A stretch of 64,000 nt of DNA from an uncultured Methylomirabilota bacterium (GTDB taxonomy: Bacteria; Methylomirabilota; Methylomirabilia; Methylomirabilales; 2-02-FULL-66-22): NCBI GenBank assembly GCA_963845565.1, contig CAWJSJ010000003.1:95148-159147 (forward strand), given 5' to 3'. The notes under the pieces are model-generated. The model ran no database searches and was not told where the DNA came from. It was given only the letters and a program-made list of their open reading frames with translations. Numbering within the stretch: the first letter of the stretch is position 1; every line of letters begins with the position of its first letter. Position numbers and translations under genes: made by a program. Below are positions 1,738 through 56,937 of the stretch, in pieces.

Positions 1738-1983
1738 CGCATGATACTCCTTTCAAGGGTCGTGTGATGCTCGCGTTGCACCGAAGCGGTGCGTTCGCGA
1801 TAGGAACGTTGGCCCACTTGGGGAGGCGGTAGTATAGCACAACAAGCGCCTCCCGGCTCCATGAACCTCAGTTTATGCCGTCGCGACGATGCGGCGTGTC
1901 TTGGAGGGATGGCATCCACAACGCCGGCGTGTTTAGGCAGCCGATTCCGAGTGCAATGCAGATGCGGGGATTCGTGCAAAAAA

Positions 1984-2394
1984 GCCGGAGAGGGCCTGTA
2001 AGCCGGGTTCTGTGACGCCCCGTTGCCGGGGCCGGTGATCATTTCTCTCGATTCCGCATTGCTGCGGAACTCTAGCAGCCAACCCGGGAGTCTCGGACGG
2101 GCCGTCCTACAACTCCGCCTTGCGACGGAGACGCTCCCCTATTTGGCCTTGCTCCGGGTGGGGTTTGCCCTGCCAGCCCTGTCACCAGGGCCGCGGTGCG
2201 CTCTTACCGCACCTTTTCACCCTTACCCCGCCTCGCGGCCCTCACGGGCCGCTCTGCGGGGCGGTATGTTTTCTGTGGCACTTTCCCTGGGGTCACCCCC
2301 GGTCGGCGTTACCGACCACCCTGCCCTGCGGAGCCCGGACTTTCCTCTCCCCTCGTCTCGCGACGAGAACAGCGACCACCCGGCCCTCTCCGGC
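1984..2394 (-). ncRNA. rnpB: RNase P RNA (bacterial type A)
   Basis: Minus strand has GAGGAAAGTCCGGGCTC, GGAAAGTGCCACAGAAA and ACAGAACCCGGCTTA. The ends GCCGGAGAGGGCC / GGCCCTCTCCGGC form P1. Confidence 0.97.
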
Positions 2395-14313: not shown

Positions 14314-15303
<990 letters not shown>

Positions 15304-39875: not shown

Positions 39876-40751
39876 TCAGTAGATCAACTTGTTCAGCGGA
39901 TACTCGACGATACCCTCCGCCCCCGCCTTCTTCAGCTTGGGGATCAGGCTCCGGGCGACCTGCTTGTCGATGATCACCTCGAGGGCCACCCATTCCGGGT
40001 CGACCTGGCTGGAGATGGTGGGCGTGTGGAGCGACGGGAGCTGGCCCGACACCTGGTCCAACTTCGCCCGCGGGACGTTCATCTTCAACCCCACCTTTCC
40101 TTCTGCCTCCAGCGCCCCCTTGAGCAGTGTGGCCAGCACCTCGATCCGCTCCCGCTTCCAGGGATCCGCCCAGGCCTGGCGGCTGGCGATGAGCTTGGTC
40201 GTCGATTCCGCCACCGTGTCGATGATCCGCAGATGATTGGCGCGCAACGACGCACCCGTCTCCGTCCCTTCGACGATGGCGTCCACGAGCAGGGGGGCCT
40301 TGATCTCCGTGGCACCCCACGAGTACTCCACCTCGGCCGCGACGCCGTTCTGTTTGAGGTATCGCTTGGTCGCGTGCACCAACTCGGTGGCGATCCGCTT
40401 CCCCTCCAGATCCTTCACGCTCTGGATGCCGGAGGCTTCCGGCACCGCCAGGACCCACCGGTAGGCCTGCGTCGTGTTCTTGCTGTACACCAGATCCTCG
40501 ACCTCCACCACGTCCGCCTCGTTCTCGAGGATCCAATCCTTCCCCGTCAGGCCGACGTCCAGCACGCCTCGTTCCACGAACCGGGCCATCTCCTGGGCGC
40601 GGAACATCAGGCATTCGATCTCCGGATCGTCGATCACGGGGATGTAGGAGCGGTCCCGCACCAGGATCTTGTACCCGGCCTTCTCGAAGAGATCGATCGT
40701 GGACTTCTGGAGGCTTCCCTTCGGCAATCCCAGCTTCAGCACGTTCTTCAT
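39876..40751 (-). CDS. hisG: ATP phosphoribosyltransferase (long form)
   Basis: [33 protein letters not shown]-terminal regulatory domain. Confidence 0.96.
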
Positions 40752-40974
40752 CAGGCGCGCGTTCCTTTCCGTGTCTCCCGACCCCGATCCCCCGTCGCTG
40801 TCCCTGTCCCTGTCGCGGCGCCGGAACGCTATCACCGCAGCCGCCATTGTCAAGAGGAATTGCCGACGCCGGGCGGACCTCCAACGCGTGAAAGGCATTG
40901 GCCGCAGCCGGATTTCGTGGTAATTTCACGGACCTCGTTCACCGATAGAATCCAGTCCCCCGACGGAAGGACGT

Positions 40975-41784
40975 ATGAATCGCCAAGCGCTCTTGAAGCT
41001 CCTGAGACACGTTCGCACCGACAAGATCACGCCCGAAAAGGCGGCGGAGCAACTCCGCCATTTGCCCTACGAGGACATGGGCTTCGCTCGGATGGATAAC
41101 CATCGGGCTTTGCGCCAGGGATTCCCGGAGGTGATCTTCTGCGAAGGGAAGACGGTCGAGCAAGTCGCCGCCATCGCGGAGCGCATCGTGGAACGCCACG
41201 GCACCCTCCTCGCGACCCGCGCCACCGCCGAGATGTTCGCTGCCGTGAGGGCTTCCGCTCCGCGTGCCGTGTATCATCCTCTGAGCCGCGCCATCGTCGT
41301 CACGGCGCCGCGACCGCCGCGTCCGGTGGGCCGGGTGCTGGTCGTCTCCGCGGGCACCTCGGACATTCCGGTGGCCGAAGAGTCCGCCGTGACCGCGGCA
41401 ATTCTCGGGAGTCGCGTGGAGACGCGATACGACGTGGGCGTCGCGGGGTTGCACCGGATCCTGGATGCTCGGGAAGCCCTGGAAGCCGCCAACGTCATCG
41501 TGGTGGCGGCCGGCATGGACGGCGTCCTGCCGTCCGTGGTGGGCGGCCTGGTCGCCAAGCCCGTGGTCGCCGTCCCGACCAGTGTCGGATACGGGGCGAG
41601 TTTCCACGGCCTCGCCGCGCTCCTCACGATGCTCAATTCCTGCGCCGCCGGGGTGGCGGTCGTGAACATCGACAACGGCTTCGGCGCCGGCGTCCTGGCG
41701 CACCGGATCAATGCGTTGGGTGCGAAAGGCCGAGCCGCGAGACCGCGCAGCCGCGACAAGACGCTTCGCAAGCGCCGGGGATAG
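40975..41784 (+). CDS. larB: Nickel-pincer cofactor biosynthesis protein LarB
   Basis: AGTSDIPVAEE, DVGVAGLHR, PTSVGYG, VNIDNGFGA. Confidence 0.94.
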   Translation: MNRQALLKLLRHVRTDKITPEKAAEQLRHLPYEDMGFARMDNHRALRQGFPEVIFCEGKTVEQVAAIAERIVERHGTLLATRATAEMFAAVRASAPRAVYHPLSRAIVVTAPRPPRPVGRVLVVSAGTSDIPVAEESAVTAAILGSRVETRYDVGVAGLHRILDAREALEAANVIVVAAGMDGVLPSVVGGLVAKPVVAVPTSVGYGASFHGLAALLTMLNSCAAGVAVVNIDNGFGAGVLAHRINALGAKGRAARPRSRDKTLRKRRG

Positions 41785-41795
41785 GAACGAATCGC

Positions 41796-42998
41796 ATGCG
41801 TATCGGATACTTCGACTGCTTCAGCGGCTGCAGCGGGGACATGATTCTCGGCGCCCTCGTGGACGCCGGGCTCCCGCTGGCAGAACTTCAGGCGGCGATC
41901 GACGGCCTCCAGGTTTCGGGTATCACGTTGCGCGGCGAAACGGTCAAGCGGGGCGCGTTCCGCGGGACCCTCGTCCGGGTGGAGACGGAAGAGCACGGTC
42001 ATCCCCATCGCCATTTGGCCGACATCCTGAGAATCCTGGACGCCGCCGAGATCCCCGCAGACGTGCGCGCGGACGCCACCCGGATTTTCCAGCGTCTCGC
42101 CGAGGCCGAGGCCGCGGCACATGGCGTCCACATCGAGAAGATCCACTTCCACGAGGTGGGCGCCCTGGACGCCATCGCCGACATCGTCGGGGCCGCCTGG
42201 GGCATCCGGCGGCTGGGCCTCGCAGCAATCTACGTCTCCCCCATCAACCTGGGGAGCGGCTTCGTGAAGGGGGCGCACGGGACCATGCCGGTTCCCGCCC
42301 CGGGAACCGCCGCCCTGCTCGCCGGGTTCCCGGCTTACGGCAGTGAGACCCCGATGGAGCTGACGACACCCACCGGGGCCGCCATCCTCACCTCGCTGGC
42401 CAGCGGCCACGGCCCCATGCCCGCCATGACGGTCGAGCGGACCGCGTACGGCGCCGGCCAGCGCGACCTCGGAACACACCCCAATTTGCTCCGCCTGATC
42501 GTTGGGGAGTCGGCGGCGCGGCACGAGCGGGATCAGGTCGCGGTGCTCGAGGCGAACATCGACGACATGAATCCCCAGTTCTTCGAGCCGCTCCTGGAGC
42601 GCCTCTTCGAGGCCGGAGCGTTGGACGCGTTTCTCTCGCCGCTCCTCATGAAGAAGTCGCGGCCGGCCTCACTCCTCACGGTCCTGGCGGAACCGGAACA
42701 CGCGGAAAGGCTGGTCGCCCTCATCCTGGGCCACACGACGACCTTCGGCGTCCGCACCTACACCGCCAGCCGATGGAAGCGGTCCCGGGACTTCGTCACC
42801 GTCGCGACGCCGTATGGCCAGGTCCGCATCAAGCGCGGCCTCGACGGGGGCCGGGTGACGATCCTCTCGCCGGAATTCGAGGACTGCCGTCGCCTGGCGA
42901 AGGTCGCCGGCGTCTCGGTTCAAGCCGTGTACGAGGCGGCGAAGCGTGCCGCCCACGAGGCGGAGTCCACCCACCCCCCCGCGGAGACCACGAAATGA
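41796..42998 (+). CDS. larC: Nickel insertion protein LarC
   Basis: DCFSGCSGDMILGAL, HFHEVGALD, EANIDD, PEFED. Confidence 0.94.
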   Translation: MRIGYFDCFSGCSGDMILGALVDAGLPLAELQAAIDGLQVSGITLRGETVKRGAFRGTLVRVETEEHGHPHRHLADILRILDAAEIPADVRADATRIFQRLAEAEAAAHGVHIEKIHFHEVGALDAIADIVGAAWGIRRLGLAAIYVSPINLGSGFVKGAHGTMPVPAPGTAALLAGFPAYGSETPMELTTPTGAAILTSLASGHGPMPAMTVERTAYGAGQRDLGTHPNLLRLIVGESAARHERDQVAVLEANIDDMNPQFFEPLLERLFEAGALDAFLSPLLMKKSRPASLLTVLAEPEHAERLVALILGHTTTFGVRTYTASRWKRSRDFVTVATPYGQVRIKRGLDGGRVTILSPEFEDCRRLAKVAGVSVQAVYEAAKRAAHEAESTHPPAETTK

Positions 42999-47128: not shown

Positions 47129-47265
47129 AAAAACAAAAACCCTTCAGCGGCCGGTTCAGCCGCGAAGGGTCTTGATCCGGGGACACGGTCCCCGCTGAGA
47201 GGCCGGGCGTCTGCGCGCCGTCCTGACGACCTCATCAGACCAGCCGAGTGATCTACTCCCCCTTG
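47129..47265 (-). ncRNA. yybP-ykoY (Mn2+) riboswitch with overlapping terminator, copy 1
   Basis: AAGGGGGAGTAG..CGTCAGGACGG..CCGG..CAAGACCCTT, then hairpin and U-tract. Confidence 0.85.
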
Positions 47266-47274
47266 CTGTCGCGC

Positions 47275-47334
47275 ACTGTACCGAAAGGCGACTCCGGTTG
47301 TCAATCATATTCGCATATAATTGTTCAATCATTC
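47275..47334 (-). promoter_or_regulatory. sigma70 promoter plus conserved operator-like motif, copy 1
   Basis: TTGACA-N18-TACAGT; upstream motif (plus strand) CATATTCG..TAATTG..TCATTC shared with 56462-56520. Confidence 0.7.
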
Positions 47335-48020
47335 ACTACTCGGCCGCGCGCCGCATGCGTCGGCCGTGCTGCCGTCTGCGCGCCGCGCCGCCGCTTCACG
47401 ACTTCGACTGCCGCCGGCGCCGCGCTGACGATGACGATCGCCAGGATGACGTACTGGAAATTCTGCTGGACCGCAGGGAGCGTCCCGATGGTATACCCCA
47501 GGCCGACGAAGATCAACACCCAGGCCACGGCGCCCACGACGTTGAAGAGGGCGAAGCGTCCATAGCGCATCTGCCCCATCCCGGCCACGAATGGCGCGAA
47601 CGTGCGGACGATCGGCACGAAGCGGGCGAGAATGATCGTCTTGCCGCCATGCCGTTCGTAGAAACGCTGCGCGGTCGCCAGATGCCGGGGGTTCAGGAGC
47701 CAGGCACGGTGCGACCGACACAGCCGTGATCCGAGCCGAGCGCCGACCGCGTAGTTGAGCGCATCGCCCAGGATGCCGGCGAGGATCAGCAGCGCGGCGA
47801 CCACCCCGATGTGGATGGGCGTGCCCGGCATGGCGGCCAGGGCCCCAACGGCGAAGAGCAGGGAGTCCCCGGGCAGAAACGGCGTCACGATCAGCCCCGT
47901 CTCGCAGAAGACGATTATTGCGAGCACGACGTAGAGCCAGGGGCCAAGGCTGCCCGCCCACTCCGCCAGTGTCACGTCGATGCGGGTGACGAGACTCCAC
48001 AGGTCCGCAAGCAATTCCAT
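47325..48020 (-). CDS. dedA: DedA family protein
   Basis: ETGLIVTPFLPGDSLLF, ARFVPIVRTFAP. Confidence 0.95.
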   Translation of the reverse strand: MELLADLWSLVTRIDVTLAEWAGSLGPWLYVVLAIIVFCETGLIVTPFLPGDSLLFAVGALAAMPGTPIHIGVVAALLILAGILGDALNYAVGARLGSRLCRSHRAWLLNPRHLATAQRFYERHGGKTIILARFVPIVRTFAPFVAGMGQMRYGRFALFNVVGAVAWVLIFVGLGYTIGTLPAVQQNFQYVILAIVIVSAAPAAVEVVKRRRGAQTAARPTHAARGRVVND

Positions 48021-48436
48021 CAACCGGCTCCCTGCAGGAGCGCCCGCAGCGGCTCCAGTAGTGCAACGAGGGCGGCGGAGGCTGGGATCAGTAACACTCG
48101 CAGGCTGGCGGTCTGGTCGCCGGGGAACGCGGGCTGGGCGTGCCCCAGACCGGCCAATGCGAAGACGCCAAACAGCGCGAGAACGACATACGCGGCGAGG
48201 GCAGTGAGCCCGAGGAGGTCCAGGAACGCGCCCGCAATGACCAGCGGAAGTCGCGACAACCGCCGACGCAGCGAGGCGAGCCGGGCTGACCTCTGCTGCG
48301 GCAACCGCCGCCCCGAGTCAGCATCCTCCACATCCGCGACCCCGCCCAGGTCGTGGGCTACACGGGCGGTATGCCAAGACGTCTCGCGCCTTCCCCGCGT
48401 CCCCGCGGTATACCCCCACCTCTGGCTCGCAGCCAT
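48020..48436 (-). CDS. Hypothetical membrane protein
   Basis: AAGGAGG RBS, hydrophobic C-half, TGATG coupling to dedA. Confidence 0.55.
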   Translation of the reverse strand: MAASQRWGYTAGTRGRRETSWHTARVAHDLGGVADVEDADSGRRLPQQRSARLASLRRRLSRLPLVIAGAFLDLLGLTALAAYVVLALFGVFALAGLGHAQPAFPGDQTASLRVLLIPASAALVALLEPLRALLQGAG

Positions 48437-48449
48437 TCTCTTGCCTCCT

Positions 48450-48890
48450 TCAGCGGTACGCCCACGGATCCGGCACTGCTTTGATTGACCTCTCCGTCCA
48501 CCGCTGCTCCTCGCGCCAGCGCCACTGCCCCGCCGCCACCGGGCGATAACGCCACCGGAATCCGCTCCCACTGCGGTTGAGCCGTTTGCCGTCGCCCGTC
48601 ACCGCCACGGCGACTCGCCTGTACGCGGAGACGATCGGCCCCCCCGGCGAAGCCAGCGCGACCGCGCATCGCACCGTGAACCCGCATCCCCGACATCGCT
48701 TTTAGCGGGCCGTCCAGTTGCCCCTCGGTCTCCCGGTCTCCCAGCTCCACCATTGCCTCCTGGCAGCAGGGGCCAGCGCGTGACGGGGATGACGATCCCG
48801 CGCCGGGAAGCTGCGCTGACGCCCTCCCGAACCGAGGGGCGGCCTTCTCTCCCGTTCGCGCCGCAACTCTCGCCGCCGTGTGGCGGCCGG
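48450..48890 (-). pseudogene. Disrupted GPCC..CxxCGFTVR protein (paralog of 60261-60539)
   Basis: Reconstructed IVIPSRAGPCCQEAMVELGDRETEGNWTAR*KRCRGCGFTVRC; two indels and one TAA; start approximate. Confidence 0.6.
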
Positions 48891-49226
48891 TCACCTCGAT
48901 TGGAACAGGCGCAGCCAGAAGTCCCTCGGCGCACTCCGTGCCGCGCGGAACCCTCCGAGGGCGCCCGAGCGATGGGGCCCGATCACAAGTGCGCCGCCAC
49001 ACTCCACGTGCACAAAGGCCCCGGTTTCGACGAGCAGCCCGACGTCTAGCCGGTCCCGGACCTGCGTCCAGCACCGCGCACATCGGTGCCCCGTCCGCTC
49101 CCAGGTCTCGAGACACTGGCGGCAGATGGCGAGGCGTGGGCGAAAGGGGGAACGGAGCGCGCGTTCCCACGTCCCGCAGACCTCACCGCACCTGCCACAA
49201 CGGAATCCGGCCAGCAGCCGCCACAT
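48891..49226 (-). CDS. Small double zinc-finger protein
   Basis: GGAGG RBS; CGRC, CRQC, CARC, HVEC. Confidence 0.6.
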   Translation of the reverse strand: MWRLLAGFRCGRCGEVCGTWERALRSPFRPRLAICRQCLETWERTGHRCARCWTQVRDRLDVGLLVETGAFVHVECGGALVIGPHRSGALGGFRAARSAPRDFWLRLFQSR

Positions 49227-49357
49227 CTTGGAACACCTCCTGCCCGATCGCGTCGTCAAGAGGGGGCGAGGCTTGCCCCCGGCGCGCCAAGGAATTCCGA
49301 GGGAAACCCGATCCCACCGCACATCCACGCGTGCCTTCACGTCCTCCCATAGGATCC

Positions 49358-52133
49358 TCACTCACGATCCTGCTCGCCCGTCTGCCCACCCTGGCCGCGC
49401 CGACCGGACCCGGGCCACCGGCCGGCCACCCATTTGCCCGTCTCGACGAGCAGAAAGCCGGCTCCGCTCACCGAGAGCGCGACTCCCCAGTCGGCCCAGG
49501 TCAACGGGATGACATGGAAGGCTTTGGCCCACGCTGGGATGTAGATCACCGCGAGCGTCATGGCCCCCGAACCGAGGGTGGCGAGCCAAAGCCACCGGTT
49601 GCCGAAGACCCCGAGCTGTAGGACGGTGAACCGGAGCGAGCGACAGGTGTGCGCGAAGAAGAGCTCGAAGAGGATCAGGGTCACGAAGGTCATGCGTCTG
49701 CGCCTTGGCCACGCCCTCTGTCTGCCAGTAGGTGTAGAAGATCGGCACCAGCCCCGCCACGATGATCAGACTGAGACTGAGGAGCGCGGTGAGGACGGAC
49801 CAGCCGAAGACCGCGTCTCCCGATTTCCGCGGGGCCCGGCGCATCAGGTCCGGTTCCGCCGGCTCCACGCCCAGCGCCAAGGCCGGGAGCCCGTCCGTGG
49901 TGAGGTTCACCCAGAGTATCTGCAGGGCCACGAGCGGGAGCGGCCACCCGATGAAGCCCGCCATGCCGAGGAGCAGGATCTCTGCGACATTGCAGGACAG
50001 GAGGAAGGTCAGATATTTCTTGATGTTGTCATAGATGACCCGGCCTTCCTCCACCGCGGCGACGATGCTGGCGAAGTTGTCGTCCGCCAACACCATGTCG
50101 CAGGCTTCCTTGGTGACGTCTGTACCCGTGATGCCCATGGCCACCCCGATGTCCGCACGCTTGAGGGCCGGGGCGTCGTTCACGCCGTCGCCTGTCATGG
50201 CGACCACGTGCTGCTGGCTCTTCCAGGCACCCACGATCTTCATCTTGTGCTCGGGGGACACCCGGGCGTACACGGCCACCTCGTCGACCATGCGCGCGAG
50301 GTCGGCCTCCGAGAGACGATCCAGCTCCCGGCCCTCGAGGACCCGGAGAGAGGTGCCCTTCCCGTTGCCGCCGGCCCCGTTGCCATTGCCCCTCTTGAAC
50401 AACCCGAGCTCGCGCGCCACCGCAGTCGCGGTGAGCTTGTGATCGCCCGTGATCATGACCGTGCGAATCCCCGCTTCGCGACAGGAGCGGATGGCCTCGC
50501 GCGCCTCGTCCCGCGGCGGGTCGATCATGCCCACGAGCCCGAGGAACGTCAGGTCGGTCTCCAAGGTCTCGGGGGTCATGGCAGCCGGGACGCCGTCTAG
50601 GCGCCGGTAGGCGATCCCCAGGACGCGGAGCGCGTCAGTCGCCATCCGGTCGTTCGACTCCAGGATCCGCGCGCGGATGGCTGATGTGAGCGGCTCCAGG
50701 CGTCCATCCCGCTCCCACGCCACGCAGCGGTCTACCAACACATCCGGCGCGCCCTTTACGAAGGCCACCACGCTCCCGTCCCGGTCCGCGTGGACCGTGC
50801 TCATGCGTTTCCGCTCGGACTCGAAGGGGATCTCGGCCACCCGGGGCCAGACCTGCCGGAGGTCCGCCGCCTGCATGCCGGCCTTCTCCGCGAGGACCAG
50901 GAGCGCCGCCTCCGTGGGATCGCCCTTGACCCGGCGGCTCCCGTTCTCACCGACGAAGTGCGTATCGTTGCAGAGCGCGCCGGCCTGGAGCAGCCGCTCC
51001 GCAGCGGGATCCGCGACGACCGCCACCGCCCCACCGTTGATGCGGAACTCCCCGACCGGGTCGTAGCCAACGCCCGTGACGTCGAGCAGCCGCCCGCCGG
51101 CGAAGACCTTTCGGACCGTCATCTCGTTTCGAGTCAGCGTCCCCGTCTTGTCGGAGCAGATGACGGTCGTGCAGCCAAGGGTCTCCACCGCCGGGAGGCG
51201 GCGGATGATGGCGCGGCGGCGCGCCGCGCGCTGCACCCCGATAGCCAGCGCGCCGGTCACGACGGCCGCCAGGGCCTCCGGCACCGCGGCAATAGCCAGG
51301 CTCACGCCCCAGATGAGCATCTCGAGCGGGGGATTGCCGCGGAAGATGCCCAGCGCGACCACGGCGGCCGAGACCCCGAGGCAGGCCAGGCCCAGCCGCT
51401 TTCCGATGTAGTCCATCTTGATGGCCAGGGGTGAAGGGTCTTCCACGACGTCCTGGAGCATCTTGGCGATCCGGCCGAACTCCGTCTGCATGCCGGTGGC
51501 GGTCACCACGGCCTGGCCGCGTCCGTACGTCACCACCGTCCCGGCGAACACCATGTTGCGCCGGTCGCCCACCCCCGCCTCCAGCCCGAGCCGCGCGTGA
51601 ACATCCTTCTCCACGGCCGTCGATTCGCCGGTGAGCGACGCCTCGTCCACCCGCAGGTTCGCGGCCTCCAGGAGCCGCGCATCCGCCGGTACCCGATCGC
51701 CGGCGTTGAGGAGGAGCACGTCGCCAGGGACGACCTCGGCCGAGGCCACCTCGATGGGCTCGCCCCCCCGGACCACCGACGCGCTCGGCGCGGCCATGGC
51801 CTTCAGCGCCTGCATCGCGCGCTCGGCGCGGAACTCCTGGTAGAAGCCGAGGAGCGCGCTCACGATGACGATACTGAAGATCACCGTGGCGTCCAGGGTG
51901 TGCCCCAGGAGCAGGGAGAGCCCGGTGGCCCCGATCAGGAGCAGGATGAGGAAGTTCTTGAACTGCGCCAGGAGGATGTGCCAGGGGCTCACGCCCTTCT
52001 CTTCCCGCAGCGTGTTTGGGCCGAACCGCTGCAGCCGGACAGCCGCCTCAGCAGGGCTGAGCCCCGTAGGAGTCGTGTCCAGCCCTCGCAGTGTCTCGTC
52101 GGCCGTCAAGTGATACCACCGTGTCTCCACCAT
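49358..52133 (-). CDS. Type II (Ca2+/Mn2+-like) P-type ATPase; frameshift near 49695
   Basis: TGES, VPEAL, DKTGT, TGDGVND, CNVAE, NLTTDGLPALAL. Confidence 0.93.
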
Positions 52134-52280
52134 CGCTCCTCCTCGCTTCCTCAGTTGTCGTCGGTGCAGTGTGACATGAGCAGTATGGATCGCCTCAACC
52201 CCGCGTCGTCGGCTCAGTAGCCCGGTATCCGCGGTGGCCGCCACGTGTCTGCGCGAATCGCGCGGCCACCACGCCAACCC

Positions 52281-53183
52281 TCATCTACGGACGACCAGTG
52301 TCGGGCATTTGGTCTCGCGCAGCAGCGTCTCCGCGACACTGCCCAGTGCAACCTCCCGTCCCGCCGTCCGCCCGCGGGCGCCCAGGACCAGGAGGTCCGG
52401 AACCCAGCGATGCACCTCATCGACCAGCTCACGTCCGGCATCGCCTTTCCGCAAGGACGACTGGACCCGGCAGGACAGCGAGGCCACGATGCCGAGCGCC
52501 TTGGTCACCGTCTGTATCGCCGTCCGTTTCTCCACCTCCGCCAGGAGGAGCAGCATGCCGCCCCGGCGGGCGCGCCCGGGCAGGGGCACGCTCGGCAGCG
52601 CGTCCGGCGTTTCCGAGACGGCGCAGATGCGCAGCTCGGCGCTGGGCGGCACCGGGAGTCCGGCCACGAAGCGAAGCGCCGCCTCCGCGTGCAACGAGCC
52701 GTCCGTCGCGACCAGCACCCGCTCAAAGCTCGCCACACGTCGCTTGGCCACCAGCACGGGACACGGCGCGGTACGCACGACCTCGTCCGACACGCTGCCG
52801 AGGATCGCCCGGCTGAGGGCGCCTCGGCCGCTGGAGCCCACGAGGATGAGATCGGCCCGCCACGACGTGGCGACTTGGAGGATGCCCGCCGTCGGCCGCC
52901 CGTCCACGATTCTGACCGCCACACTCGCGGCTCGGTGTCGGAGCGCCGCGTAGAGGGATTCCACCACCTTCTCGGCGCCCCGTTGGGCCTCGGCGCGAAG
53001 GCCGGCGATCGCGCTTCCGTAGAGCCGGCGGGCGTGCGGGCCAGGCGACGTGAGCGGCGGGCGCGGGATGTCCAAGACGGACGCGAGGACGATGTTCAGA
53101 GGGTCGGTCAGGGGGAAGATCCGGATGCCCTCCTCAACCCATCCCGGGTCGGCGTGCGGCTCGACGGCGATGACGATTCGCAT
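52281..53183 (-). CDS. Tandem-domain universal stress protein
   Basis: Two USP domains (GSSGR..LGSVSDEVVR..CPVLV; GARG..LGSVAE..CPTLVV). Confidence 0.9.
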   Translation of the reverse strand: MRIVIAVEPHADPGWVEEGIRIFPLTDPLNIVLASVLDIPRPPLTSPGPHARRLYGSAIAGLRAEAQRGAEKVVESLYAALRHRAASVAVRIVDGRPTAGILQVATSWRADLILVGSSGRGALSRAILGSVSDEVVRTAPCPVLVAKRRVASFERVLVATDGSLHAEAALRFVAGLPVPPSAELRICAVSETPDALPSVPLPGRARRGGMLLLLAEVEKRTAIQTVTKALGIVASLSCRVQSSLRKGDAGRELVDEVHRWVPDLLVLGARGRTAGREVALGSVAETLLRETKCPTLVVRR

Positions 53184-53196
53184 GGTGGTCCAGAGA

Positions 53197-53213
53197 AGCA
53201 ACGCCCGTACCAG
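53197..53213 (-). promoter_or_regulatory. Putative sigma54 promoter of the usp-ATPase operon
   Basis: CTGGTACGGGCGTTGCT (GG-N10-GC). Confidence 0.7.
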
Positions 53214-53380
53214 CGCGAGCCCCAGACTCCCACAGGCCAAAGTGCTCGATTCTGTGGCGCCGGCGGCGCGGGGAGCGAGCGGCGAAGGATGACGGCCAAC
53301 GGCAAGGTGTCGCGAGCCGACGCTATCCGTATCGGAGGGTATCGCCAGAAATTTGGGGGGTTAGTGTTTCAGGGCGGCCG

Positions 53381-53413
53381 CGACAGGCTGTCGGCTAGTC
53401 GGACACGGTGTCG
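53381..53413. promoter_or_regulatory. Tandem palindromes, candidate enhancer (UAS)
   Basis: CGACAGGCTGTCG and GGACACGGTGTCG, 20 bp apart. Confidence 0.55.
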
Positions 53414-54783
53414 GGCGGGAAGGATTCCGCAGCGGGCGGCTTCGCCAGCCGCTGATCGCGGCGCTCGAGCGTCCGGGGATGCACCTGCAGGATCTGGGCG
53501 GCACGGGCCCGGTCGCCATGCACCTCGGCGAGCACGCGCTCGATGTAACGCTCCTCCAGGTCACGGAGGCTCCAGTTGTGGGCCAGGCCCATCTCAAGGA
53601 TCTCGCCCTGCTCCCGCACCGAGGACGGGAGATCCGCCGGCGTGATGAGCTCCGCACGCGCGAAGGCCACGGCGCGCTCCATGGCATTCTCCAACTCGCG
53701 GACGTTCCCGGGCCAGCGGTAGGCCTCCACAAGCGCTATCGCCTCGGACGTCAGGCCGCGAACCGGCCGCTCCTGCTGCGCGGCGAACTTCCCGACGAAA
53801 TGGCGCACGAGCCGCGGGAGGTCGCTCGCTCGCTCGCGGAGCGGGGGAAGGTGAATGCCCACGACGTTGAGCCGGTAGTAGAGATCCGCACGGAACGTGC
53901 CGGCATCGATCTGGGCATTCGGGTCGCGATTGGTCGAGGCTATGGCCCGGAACTCTACCACCGTGCCGCGGTTGCTCCCCAGGGGACGCACTTCCCGATC
54001 CTCGAGGACGCGGAGAAGTTTCGCCTGCAGGGCGACGGACATCTCGGAGATCTCGTCGAGGAAGAGCGTTCCCCCGTGCGCCTCCTCCACCAGGCCCTTC
54101 CGGGCCGTCGCGGCCCCGGTGAAGGCCCCGCGGACGTGGCCGAACAACTCGCTTTCGAGCAGAGTTTCGGGAATCGCGGCGCAGTTCAGCGCGACGAAGG
54201 GGCCCCGACGTCTCGGGCTGTTGTAGTGAATGGCCTTCGCCACCAATTCCTTGCCGGTCCCGCTCTCGCCTGTCACGAGGACGCTGAGATCGGCACGCGC
54301 GGCACCCGCGATCAGCGCGAACACTTCCTGCATCCCGGGGCTGCTTCCGACCAGGCTCGCGAAACCATAGCGCCGCTCGACCTCGCCCCGGAGCGAGCGG
54401 TTCTCGCGCCGAAGGCGCGTATCTTCCAGGGCCCGCTCCAGCGCCAGGACGAGTTCCTCGATCTCGAACGGCTTGGAGACATAATCGAAGGCGCCCTGTT
54501 TCACCGCCTCGATCGCGGAGGCGATCGTGGCGAAGGCGGTGATGATGATGACCTTCGCTTCGGGCTGGCTCTCCGCGGCTGCCCGCACGATCTCCAACCC
54601 GTCGAAGTCGGGCATTCGGAGATCGGTCACCACCGCATCCACGGGCGCTTCGCGGAGGATTCGCATCCCCGCCGCGCCGGAGGACGCGGGGAGGACCGTG
54701 AAGCCGCACGCGGCGAGTTCCTGCTCCAGCAAACGCACAATCTCGCCGTCGTCATCCACGACCAGCACTCTGGCCTCAGGCAC
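53395..54783 (-). CDS. NtrC-family sigma54-dependent response regulator
   Basis: Receiver, GESGTGKE, GAFTGA, WPGNVREL, Fis HTH. Confidence 0.95.
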   Translation of the reverse strand: MPEARVLVVDDDGEIVRLLEQELAACGFTVLPASSGAAGMRILREAPVDAVVTDLRMPDFDGLEIVRAAAESQPEAKVIIITAFATIASAIEAVKQGAFDYVSKPFEIEELVLALERALEDTRLRRENRSLRGEVERRYGFASLVGSSPGMQEVFALIAGAARADLSVLVTGESGTGKELVAKAIHYNSPRRRGPFVALNCAAIPETLLESELFGHVRGAFTGAATARKGLVEEAHGGTLFLDEISEMSVALQAKLLRVLEDREVRPLGSNRGTVVEFRAIASTNRDPNAQIDAGTFRADLYYRLNVVGIHLPPLRERASDLPRLVRHFVGKFAAQQERPVRGLTSEAIALVEAYRWPGNVRELENAMERAVAFARAELITPADLPSSVREQGEILEMGLAHNWSLRDLEERYIERVLAEVHGDRARAAQILQVHPRTLERRDQRLAKPPAAESFPPDTVSD

Positions 54784-56276
54784 GCCGCGCCTCCCGCCGG
54801 TCCCCCGGCAGCCAGATGGTGAAGCGAGCACCCTCGCCCGGTGCGCTCTCGACGGTGATGGTCCCCTCGTGTGCCCGCACGATGTCGAGGCAGATGCTGA
54901 GCCCGAGCCCGGTACCGCCGCTCCCCTTGGTGGAGAAGAAGGGATTGAAGATGCGCTCTAGATCCTCTGGGGCGATCCCCGTCCCGGTGTCCGTGACGCA
55001 CAGCGCGATGCCCGCGCGGCCGTCCTGATGCACCGCGGCCGCGGAGACACCCACATGGCCTCCGGCGGCCGTGGCCGCCGCCGCGTTCATGAGGAGATTC
55101 AAGAGGACCTGCGTGAGGCCGTCGCCATCCGCCAGGAATCGTGGGGAGGTCGGGGGGCAACGCCAGGCCGAGGTGGACGCGCCGCGCCGCGAACTCCGGC
55201 GCGGCGACTGCCGCGGCCTCGCGGACCAGCCGCCCCGCATCCATGGGCTCGTGCCGCGTGGGCAGCGCCCGGGACGATTGCAGGACCTGCTGCATGGTGC
55301 GCGTGATGCGGCTGACCTGCTCCCGGATCGTCGCCACCTCATGGCGCCGAGGATCGTCTTCCGATAGGCTCCGGCCGAGGATGCGGGCCCGCCCGGAGAT
55401 CACGTGAAGCGGAGTCCCGACCTCGTGCGCAATGACGCTCGCCAGCTTGCCCACCGCGGCGAGCCGTTCCGCGTGCCGAAGCTGGCGCTCCAGGACGGTG
55501 CGGGTCTCCTCCGCACGCCGGCGCTCGTCCTGCGCGTCCGCCAAGTTGCCGGCCATGCGGTTAAAGGCCCGGCCCAGCTCGCCGATCTCCGTGTGTCCCA
55601 CGGCCGAGACCCGGGCGGTCAGGTTGCCTTGCCCGATCTCAGCGGCTCCCGCGATGAGACGTCGGATCGGGCGGGTGACCAACAGTGCGATTCCGATCCA
55701 CACGGTCACGCCGATGGCGACGAGCGCCCACGCCCGCTCCACCAGGATGGTGTTCCGAACGGTCTGGAGCGGCCCAGAGACCCGGGCGACATCGAAGACC
55801 AGCTTGAGGATCGCCTGGGGCGAATCGTTCGGGGTGACCGGAGCTTGGATGTTGTAGGTACCCGAGAGGCTCCACTGGGCGGACACGGTTTCGGCAACGG
55901 GCTCCGGGGTGATCGCGGGCGGACAGACGTCGGGACCCCGTTCCGATGTTGCCGACTCGAACGCGGCCCGAAGGCGTCGGCCCTCCAGGGTGTACACCCC
56001 CACGCACTCGGCGCCCTTGGCCTGCCGAATGTCCTCCAACAGTCCGACCAGCCGTGGATCGTCGGGGGCGTGCAGGAGGGGCGGCACTTGCCCCTCGATA
56101 GCCTGGGTCACCAGGCTCGCTTCGCGCTGGAGCTGAGTCAACACCCGCTTCCGCTCCTGGCGAAGCCGCCACCCGTCCGCCGCCAACGTGACTCCAACGA
56201 CGGCCAGCGTGACGAGCAGAAACAGGCGCAGCCCGAGGCGATTCCGCGGCAGCAGCGCCGCCAGATGCTTGCTCAC
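54776..56276 (-). CDS. HAMP sensor histidine kinase; frameshift near 55135
   Basis: 2 TM, HAMP, HEVGTPL, NLLMNA, DTGTG, GTGLGL. Confidence 0.9.
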
Positions 56277-56314
56277 ACGCTACCTCGTCGCGGAAGCTCG
56301 GGTGACCGACCCCC

Positions 56315-56454
56315 AAACACGAAGACCCTCCACGGCCGGTGGGCCACGAAGGGTCTTGATCCGAGGGCAGCGTCCCCCGCTGGGAGGCCGGGCCGCACGC
56401 TATGGCGGCCGGCATGACGACCTCGCCAGACCGACGGCGATCTACTCCCCCTTG
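56315..56454 (-). ncRNA. yybP-ykoY (Mn2+) riboswitch, copy 2
   Basis: AAGGGGGAGTAG..CGTCATGCCGG..CCGG..CAAGACCCTT, then hairpin ending GGGTCTTCGTGTTT. Confidence 0.85.
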
Positions 56455-56461
56455 CGAGGGG

Positions 56462-56554
56462 ACTCTAGCCAACCCAACGCGCGGTGTCAACCATATTCGA
56501 ACGTAATTGAATGCTCATTCCTCCTTGACCAGCCGGCGGCGCAGCGACTAGAAT
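56462..56554. promoter_or_regulatory. Divergent promoters with shared operator-like motif, copy 2
   Basis: Minus: TTGACA-N17-TAGAGT. Plus: TTGACC-N18-TAGAAT for arsR. CATATTCGAACGTAATTGAATG lies between them. Confidence 0.7.
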
Positions 56555-56583
56555 AGTGCCATCATTTCTCCTGGAGACCCCCC

Positions 56584-56937
56584 GTGCCCCTGCGTCAACG
56601 CGTGCTAGAAGATGCGGCAGAGCTCCTCGGCGTGCTCGGCCATCCTAATCGGCTCCGGATCCTCGCGCTGCTCCACGACGGTGAGCGCGACGTGACCGAT
56701 TTGAAGACTCAACTCGAGGTGCCCGCGGCAAACGTCTCGCAACATCTTGGCGTCCTCCGCTCGCACCACCTCGTCACGGTCCGCCGCGCCGGCACCCGGA
56801 TGGTCTATGCGCTTCGGGACCCTCGGGTGGTCGACGTCATCAACCGCACCCTCGATTTGCTCGCTGATGACATCGCACAAGCGCCCCAGCTTCGTCGAGC
56901 GATCGAGCGCGTGCGCATTCCACCGACGAAGCCCTAA
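56584..56937 (+). CDS. ArsR/SmtB-family repressor (no Cys)
   Basis: LGHPNRLRIL..VSQHLGVLR..RRAG..VYAL. Confidence 0.9.
   Translation: MPLRQRVLEDAAELLGVLGHPNRLRILALLHDGERDVTDLKTQLEVPAANVSQHLGVLRSHHLVTVRRAGTRMVYALRDPRVVDVINRTLDLLADDIAQAPQLRRAIERVRIPPTKP

Follow-up and report, generated by a model that had tools for sequence, protein, structure and literature searches.

Validated yybP-ykoY riboswitches act directly on genes of transporters or other membrane proteins. In Lactococcus lactis yoaB and Streptococcus pneumoniae mgtA, as described in the parts of PMC6649816 and PMC8632737 used here, a four-way junction with L1 G-G-A and AGA and with an L3 C-A is combined with a terminator-type ON platform and sits directly on the gene of a P2A pump. 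Here we describe a stretch of 64,000 nucleotides from an uncultured Methylomirabilota bacterium (contig CAWJSJ010000003.1; 'the window') in which a leader of the same apparent build seems to form part of a signalling hierarchy: a sensor kinase, a sigma54 activator, a candidate enhancer and a second promoter intervene between the switch and a P2A-type ATPase. We consider it probable, if by no means certain, that this locus is a two-tier metal-gated cassette. The genome of the window, G000, has 5.36 Mb in 6 contigs; the relatives' genomes, 251 of the same phylum (uncultured Methylomirabilota), are labelled G000, G085 and so on. Every element that an initial annotation of the window had listed (leader, kinase, activator, palindromes, -24/-12 promoter, usp, P2A ATPase, dedA) is present where it had been placed, on the minus strand:

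56462..56490, minus strand: sigma70-type promoter TTGACA-17-TAGAGT, with identical hexamers and spacing in G085
56349..56453, minus strand: yybP-ykoY-family aptamer (copy A), four-way junction, L1 GGAGUA/AAGA, L3 UCAUGCC
56315..56357, minus strand: terminator-type hairpin (stem 56357-56322, tail to 56315) predicted to sequester the 3' strand of P1.1, with a moderate U tract
54776..56276, minus strand: sensor kinase with transmembrane (TM) helix, single Cache/PAS-like domain, TM helix, HAMP, HisKA and HATPase; frameshift at 55138
53395..54783, minus strand: sigma54 activator (ntrC) with receiver (D54), Walker A/B, GAFTGA (residue 219) and Fis-type helix-turn-helix (HTH)
53382..53412, no strand: tandem GACA-N3-TGTC palindromes (53412-53402 and 53392-53382, 20-bp period), candidate enhancer
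53197..53212, minus strand: -24/-12 (sigma54) promoter
52281..53183, minus strand: usp, tandem universal stress protein domains (PF00582 twice)
49358..52133, minus strand: P2A-type ATPase (LMCA1/SPCA/SERCA-like), frameshift near 49700, intact in G085
48891..49226, minus strand: small Cys-rich Zn-finger-like protein of no known family that travels with usp
47325..48020, minus strand: dedA, about 870 bp downstream of the gene for the Zn-finger-like protein

In the proposed mechanism, transcription from the sigma70 promoter would read into an ON switch whose terminator forms without ligand. The ligand, most likely excess cytoplasmic Mn2+ and possibly Ca2+, would cause L1-L3 docking that holds P1.1, and kinase and activator would be made. 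In the second tier, the periplasmic Cache domain would sense its own, separate stimulus, and the activator, once phosphorylated, would bind the tandem palindromes where its own gene ends and then activate the sigma54 promoter from which usp, P2A ATPase and Zn-finger gene are transcribed. Both inputs would be needed for full expression of the pump; riboswitch-only read-through past ntrC would probably provide a basal level, corresponding to a coherent feed-forward loop or a leaky AND gate. A third input may come, in G000, from an ArsR-type repressor.

The initial annotation had identified the leader as a yybP-ykoY aptamer and had proposed the Rfam model as a check. Formally, this check is negative and, taken by itself, speaks against our interpretation: RF00080, run in four settings, matches neither the window nor a 201-nt focus region nor the genome, even at E<=10. 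However, the test is insensitive: the model misses Escherichia coli alx, gives mntP a score of 41.6 with a cut-off of 45 and exceeds its cut-off in just 2 of 14 control genomes. Since the same model overlooks alx, we rejected the missing match as a refutation.

Relatives of the leader were therefore judged by other means. A sequence pattern gave 27 matches and 23 of the 251 genomes; four matches that lack L3 or the terminator (L025, L026, L027, L030) were dropped before alignment and counts, and the alignment (A4), without the near-duplicates L010 and L016, comprises 24 copies. It describes a four-way junction (P1-P4) with L1 in P1 and L3 in P3, in which 17 of 31 pairs vary on both sides and 91% of cells pair (equalled by 0 of 500 shuffles; 31-51% in slid alignment controls), figures that are inflated because the structure was drawn from the same, mutually related sequences. 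The weakest helix is P4, with 70.6% paired and absent from 4 of the 24 rows. L1 G-G-A, the 3' AGA and L3 C-A (the A41 equivalent), which define the metal site according to parts of PMC6649816 and PMC6754395, are invariant in 24/24 rows, and among these only L3 C-A is partly independent, as the search pattern already included 5' GGGGAGTAG and 3' AGAC.

An independent check of family membership is the reverse test. A model (R1) built from the leader and its relatives, with no E. coli sequences, recovers the E. coli switches alx (42.5 bits) and mntP (24.1 bits) full-length as the top two matches among 13 loci, and has no match in the manXYZ control locus. The claim of a yybP-ykoY switch is thus well supported as to family membership, by covariation and reverse model, albeit not by an RF00080 match; Mn2+ is the presumed ligand of aptamer A. 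E. coli alx and mntP lead exporter genes directly, unlike copy A, which belongs to a GC-rich variant overlooked by RF00080; other copies of G000 are followed by TerC/Alx genes. A whole GC-rich lineage of switches, five of them in G000, is invisible to present Rfam annotation. We counted 42 family copies, leaving out a weak match in G001; half of them (21/42) have terC (18) or a P-type ATPase (3) within 1.5 kb.

The hairpin of copy A has a predicted energy of -26.2 kcal/mol (z -2.97). In the predicted folds, a hairpin overlapping P1.1 is kept in G014, G235 and G016 and is weaker in G085, where it covers a ribosome-binding-like sequence. Such overlap of a terminator with P1 is, as modelled here, what an ON switch would show. 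Folding of the aptamers as single sequences does no better than shuffles (z -0.14 and -0.35) and was therefore not counted as support.

Close orthologues of the kinase are found at six loci in five of the 251 genomes, and at four of them (G000, G014:C169, G085, G235) the switch is intact; the synteny survey proposed by the initial annotation thus recovers a switch heading the kinase-activator pair in four genomes of three families. These are 4 of the 42 family copies. A search with R1 over a further comparison set, 151 genomes from the phylum of G251, found nine copies, none ahead of a kinase. The architecture is real and conserved, but rare.

Directly after the switch, as the initial annotation had stated, follows a kinase (56276-54776) with HAMP, HisKA and HATPase domains, and two TM helices flank its Cache/PAS-like domain (model pLDDT 75). 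Foldseek matches of this sensor domain are WalK, CitA and DctB, and Atlas matches are of the CHASE8/sCache type, consistent with a kinase of the extracytoplasmic-sensing type. At least 90% of 67 homologues retain Cys91, Cys118, E41, E52, D82, D116 and E129. Full-length kinases of this family form 67 clusters (447-519 aa), and the link to yybP suggests a possible physiological role for what is an orphan family with no fewer than 67 members. Frameshifts interrupt several genes of the window (kinase, ATPase, hflK, hflC). We take them to be probably assembly errors, because the one extra base in the kinase, at 55138, is missing from a metagenome contig of 98.6% identity and because of the 67 full-length kinase clusters. 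The metagenome scan returned only two near-identical contigs among 34 loci.

The activator has the expected receiver-AAA-HTH order with GAFTGA at residue 219, rpoN is found in the genome, and a -24/-12 consensus does lie ahead of usp (53212-53197). The first palindrome sits within the final ntrC codons, and a third, degenerate one is found near 53312-53300. As for the palindromes reported in the initial annotation, it is the tandem arrangement that stands out: it occurs once in 5.36 Mb, with no mismatch, whereas the single palindrome (2 in the window vs 0.67 expected) is not above chance. The strict -24/-12 consensus has two matches in the window vs 0.03 expected and four in the genome, one of them about 170 bp from the tandem site; the second match of the window is at 14697-14712 (minus strand). 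Both elements are present in all four ntrC-usp spacers (G000, G085, G010, G014:C524), with the promoter match 170-213 bp past the tandem site and scores of 8, 6, 6 and 6 of 8, respectively. The tandem site is absent from all five usp-upstream regions that lack the kinase-activator pair; one of the five has a promoter match of 6 of 8. Similar sites follow the genes of more distant activators in G003, G004 and G020, and the motif therefore belongs to this activator subfamily. In G020 (L143 7105-17993), terC-usp-Znf (Znf: the Zn-finger gene) is flanked by two kinase-activator pairs, and a tandem GACA-N3-TGTC-like site comes after each of them; no switch was found at this locus, and an IS-like ORF lies between the pairs.

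Besides the Rfam result, several observations weigh against the two-tier reading. In G010 the switch is decayed (L060 16663-16900, minus strand; 8 of 500 shuffles equal its alignment score): it has kept P3.2, the 3' end and a portion of L3 and has lost the 5' L1 motif. The leader of G014:C524 (L061 5170-5360, plus strand) is unrelated and consists of a promoter, a long perfect hairpin and a terminator, with no match to an Rfam family. The kinase of G235 is truncated, and switch and sigma54 tier are on one contig solely in G000 and G085; those of G014 were joined by inference across two. The promoter of G085 reaches just 6/8, as does one of the five control regions, and the +1 is predicted to lie about 3 nt ahead of the usp start in G000 and G085 (about 50 nt in G010 and G014:C524). 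About 31 further sigma54 activators are encoded in the genome and, given also the similar tandem sites of the G020 paralogues, the activator is only presumed to be cognate to its neighbouring site. No terminator was found in the 210-bp ntrC-usp spacer of G000 and G085. Finally, metatranscriptome contigs are short, scattered pieces and of no use as expression data.

The decay in G010 and the replacement in G014:C524, together with the moderate U tract of copy A, would fit a switch that is a mere vestige upstream of an inserted pair and has lost its gating. However, aptamer, promoter and overlapping hairpin are intact, with compensatory changes, in four genomes of three families, and we regard a vestige as very improbable.

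How the cassette may have arisen is indicated by genomes with other arrangements. G016 has no kinase and activator: a closely similar switch with terminator lies directly on usp-Znf-ATPase, and there is neither tandem site nor -24/-12 promoter. In G008, G017 and G018 (loci L147, L146, L145), usp-Znf follows switch-mpsC-mpsC-terC (MpsC = DUF2294), and the order switch-usp-ATPase is also found in L162, from a genome of the Acidobacteriota phylum. Because of these direct arrangements, usp, Zn-finger gene and pump are ordinary members of the regulon; in one lineage, the two-component block separates the switch from them. Insertion of the pair is more parsimonious than its loss; in the usp and ATPase trees G016 stands in an open fork, and trees do not settle between the two. 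G085 and G000 are 85% identical in ntrC and 83% in the ATPase, vs 46% in the flanking rimO and 56% in yajQ, and therefore the cassette was transferred horizontally as a unit. Three states thus exist side by side: direct control (G016), two tiers (G000, G085, G014), and loss of the switch with sigma54 control kept (G010, G014:C524). Their coexistence makes the rewiring of a metal regulon testable by simple reporters.

The initial annotation had placed the switch over the regulators and the exporter one tier lower, and had interpreted this as an AND gate of cytoplasmic Mn2+ and an extracytoplasmic signal. The first part agrees with the gene order and with cis sites that are conserved only together with the pair, but has to allow for read-through. 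The strict AND gate is not established, because no terminator divides ntrC from usp; for Mn2+ as its metal input, we consider such a gate possible but rather doubtful, and feed-forward wiring is as likely. The terminator-free spacer would also suit a single riboswitch-led operon: the pair would have been inserted into an ordinary yybP-usp-ATPase operon, the pump would be expressed mainly by read-through, and the sigma54 promoter would amplify this or answer a separate signal (OR-like). The direct arrangement of G016, the presence of usp-Znf inside the switch-led operons of G008, G017 and G018 and an almost leaderless sigma54 transcript for usp in G000 and G085 point the same way. However, enhancer and promoter are kept in 4/4 spacers, including the two loci with a decayed or replaced switch, which argues that the sigma54 tier carries real load, and we consider the single operon unlikely, although not negligible. 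As for the two-tier cassette, we tentatively put forward a more specific form: a mobile natural AND gate, in which a cytoplasmic Mn2+ riboswitch would license a two-component system and only the two inputs together would activate the sigma54 promoter of the pump, for Mn2+/Ca2+. Such a gate would have arisen by insertion of a whole kinase-activator-enhancer-promoter block into a yybP operon of the ordinary kind, and its Cache domain, with invariant Cys91/Cys118 and five conserved acidic residues, would sense an external divalent cation or an envelope cue.

Downstream of the -24/-12 promoter, the annotated usp (PF00582 domains) and type II P-type ATPase, here assigned to P2A, are both present. 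The profiles TIGR01522 and TIGR01116 rank first for the ATPase, with scores under their eukaryote-type cut-offs, and LMCA1 and SPCA1 are on top in a search of the PDB. The pump retains the residues of both SERCA-type sites, based on a SERCA numbering that we presume to be correct, and has a Glu in place of LMCA1 Arg795; its gene has its own strong ribosome site. The substrate may be Mn2+, and from the residues Ca2+ is equally plausible.

The closeness of the pump to the Ca2+ pumps LMCA1 and SPCA1, with its Glu at the position of Arg795, bears on an alternative with the same architecture and another ion, in which aptamer variant and pump would serve the homeostasis of Ca2+ (or of alkaline pH). 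At position 6 of L3, 36 of the 42 copies have A and six have C, including all four kinase-linked ones, which may be drift or tuning. In addition, the S. pneumoniae switch answers Ca2+ in vitro (parts of PMC6649816 covered) and yybP variants for other ions are suspected (parts of PMC7266159 covered). However, L1 G-G-A, 3' AGA and L3 C-A are kept, other copies head TerC/Alx genes, and Mn2+ was the best activator in the S. pneumoniae study as far as covered (PMC6649816). We regard another ion as improbable.

Of the Zn-finger genes in the initial annotation, a single one was found rather than several; its product has no Pfam match, and neither have the ORFs between this gene and dedA. Synteny gives no support to dedA as a member of the operon: it is not found after the ATPase or Zn-finger gene at the five other loci examined (G085, G010, two loci of G014, G016).

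The window has further regulatory elements at both ends of the cassette:

56492..56520, minus strand: candidate ArsR operator box abutting the -35, core T[TG]CGAATAT
56525..56554, plus strand: sigma70-type promoter candidate for arsR, 10/12 consensus
56584..56937, plus strand: divergent arsR, ArsR/SmtB-family regulator, PF01022 and NF033788 above cut-off
47275..47334, minus strand: another sigma70-type promoter, preceded by the same box, just past dedA
47129..47264, minus strand: second yybP-ykoY aptamer (copy B) with a strong terminator (hairpin z -4.85), before DUF2934-hflK-hflC

The ArsR protein has no Cys and, as read from its sequence, no obvious alpha5 metal site. The long box motif occurs twice in the genome, before the two switches of the window, and was not in the initial annotation; the box core is found at four of the five switch promoters of G000 (5 of 29 core matches in the genome). 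Two of the box-bearing switch promoters have a divergent arsR, the paralogue at another yybP switch being 61% identical. G164 repeats the arrangement of arsR, related box and switch, and the other kinase-linked switch promoters have no box. The ArsR input is thus likely lineage-specific, with the box as the putative binding site.

Copy B had also been overlooked, and DUF2934-hflK-hflC are unusual targets for a yybP-ykoY switch. In G014, too, another switch lies downstream of the Zn-finger gene; at this position G085 (L041 9914-9943, plus strand) has a second promoter, TTGACA-18-TAGAGT, that is not followed by an aptamer. The remaining three switches of G000 (C2:541588-541701, 546208-546317 and 1029050-1029157), all overlooked by Rfam, head htpX-terC-P2A ATPase, a dksA/traR-like gene, and two zf-TFIIB genes with terC. 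G000 thus has a second P2A ATPase that, together with terC, is under direct switch control. Eight switches head a gene of a DksA/TraR-type zinc finger protein, often followed by terC (L020, L011, L013, L021, L014, L010, L091, L019), another placement of the switch on a putative regulator. Elsewhere in the window are a class A RNase P RNA (1983-2391, minus strand, 303.6 bits) and, at 39876-42998, genes that we take from their motifs to be a long-form hisG (minus strand) and larB/larC-like genes (plus strand).

Among known two-component systems, AtoSC and ZraSR have a similar layout: a membrane kinase and an NtrC-family activator are encoded beside the sigma54 target operon. We know of no riboswitch leader on either. 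The pair described here differs from both, as kinase and activator score under the NCBIfam equivalog cut-offs of AtoS, AtoC, ZraS and ZraR; the best profile of the activator is AtoC, with 464 vs a cut-off of 714, and ZraR reaches 373 vs 760.

Literature searches found no paper in which a yybP-ykoY switch heads genes of a two-component system or of a sigma54 regulator, although the gene-context lists of Dambach 2015 and Price 2015 could hold one. In Pseudomonas putida GB-1, the kinases MnxS1/S2 and the regulator MnxR mediate Mn-dependent activation of predicted sigma54 promoters; the targets are Mn oxidases, and the parts of PMC11930936 that were covered mention no riboswitch. Integration of a riboswitch with a two-component system is already known from the eut genes of Enterococcus and Listeria, where, according to the parts of PMC5821096 covered, an AdoCbl riboswitch and EutVW jointly set the target operon. 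The mechanism there is another one: the ligand is B12, the switch shortens an sRNA that sequesters the ANTAR regulator, synthesis of the pair is not gated, and no sigma54 is involved. In the cassette described here, it is the synthesis of kinase and activator that the switch would control.

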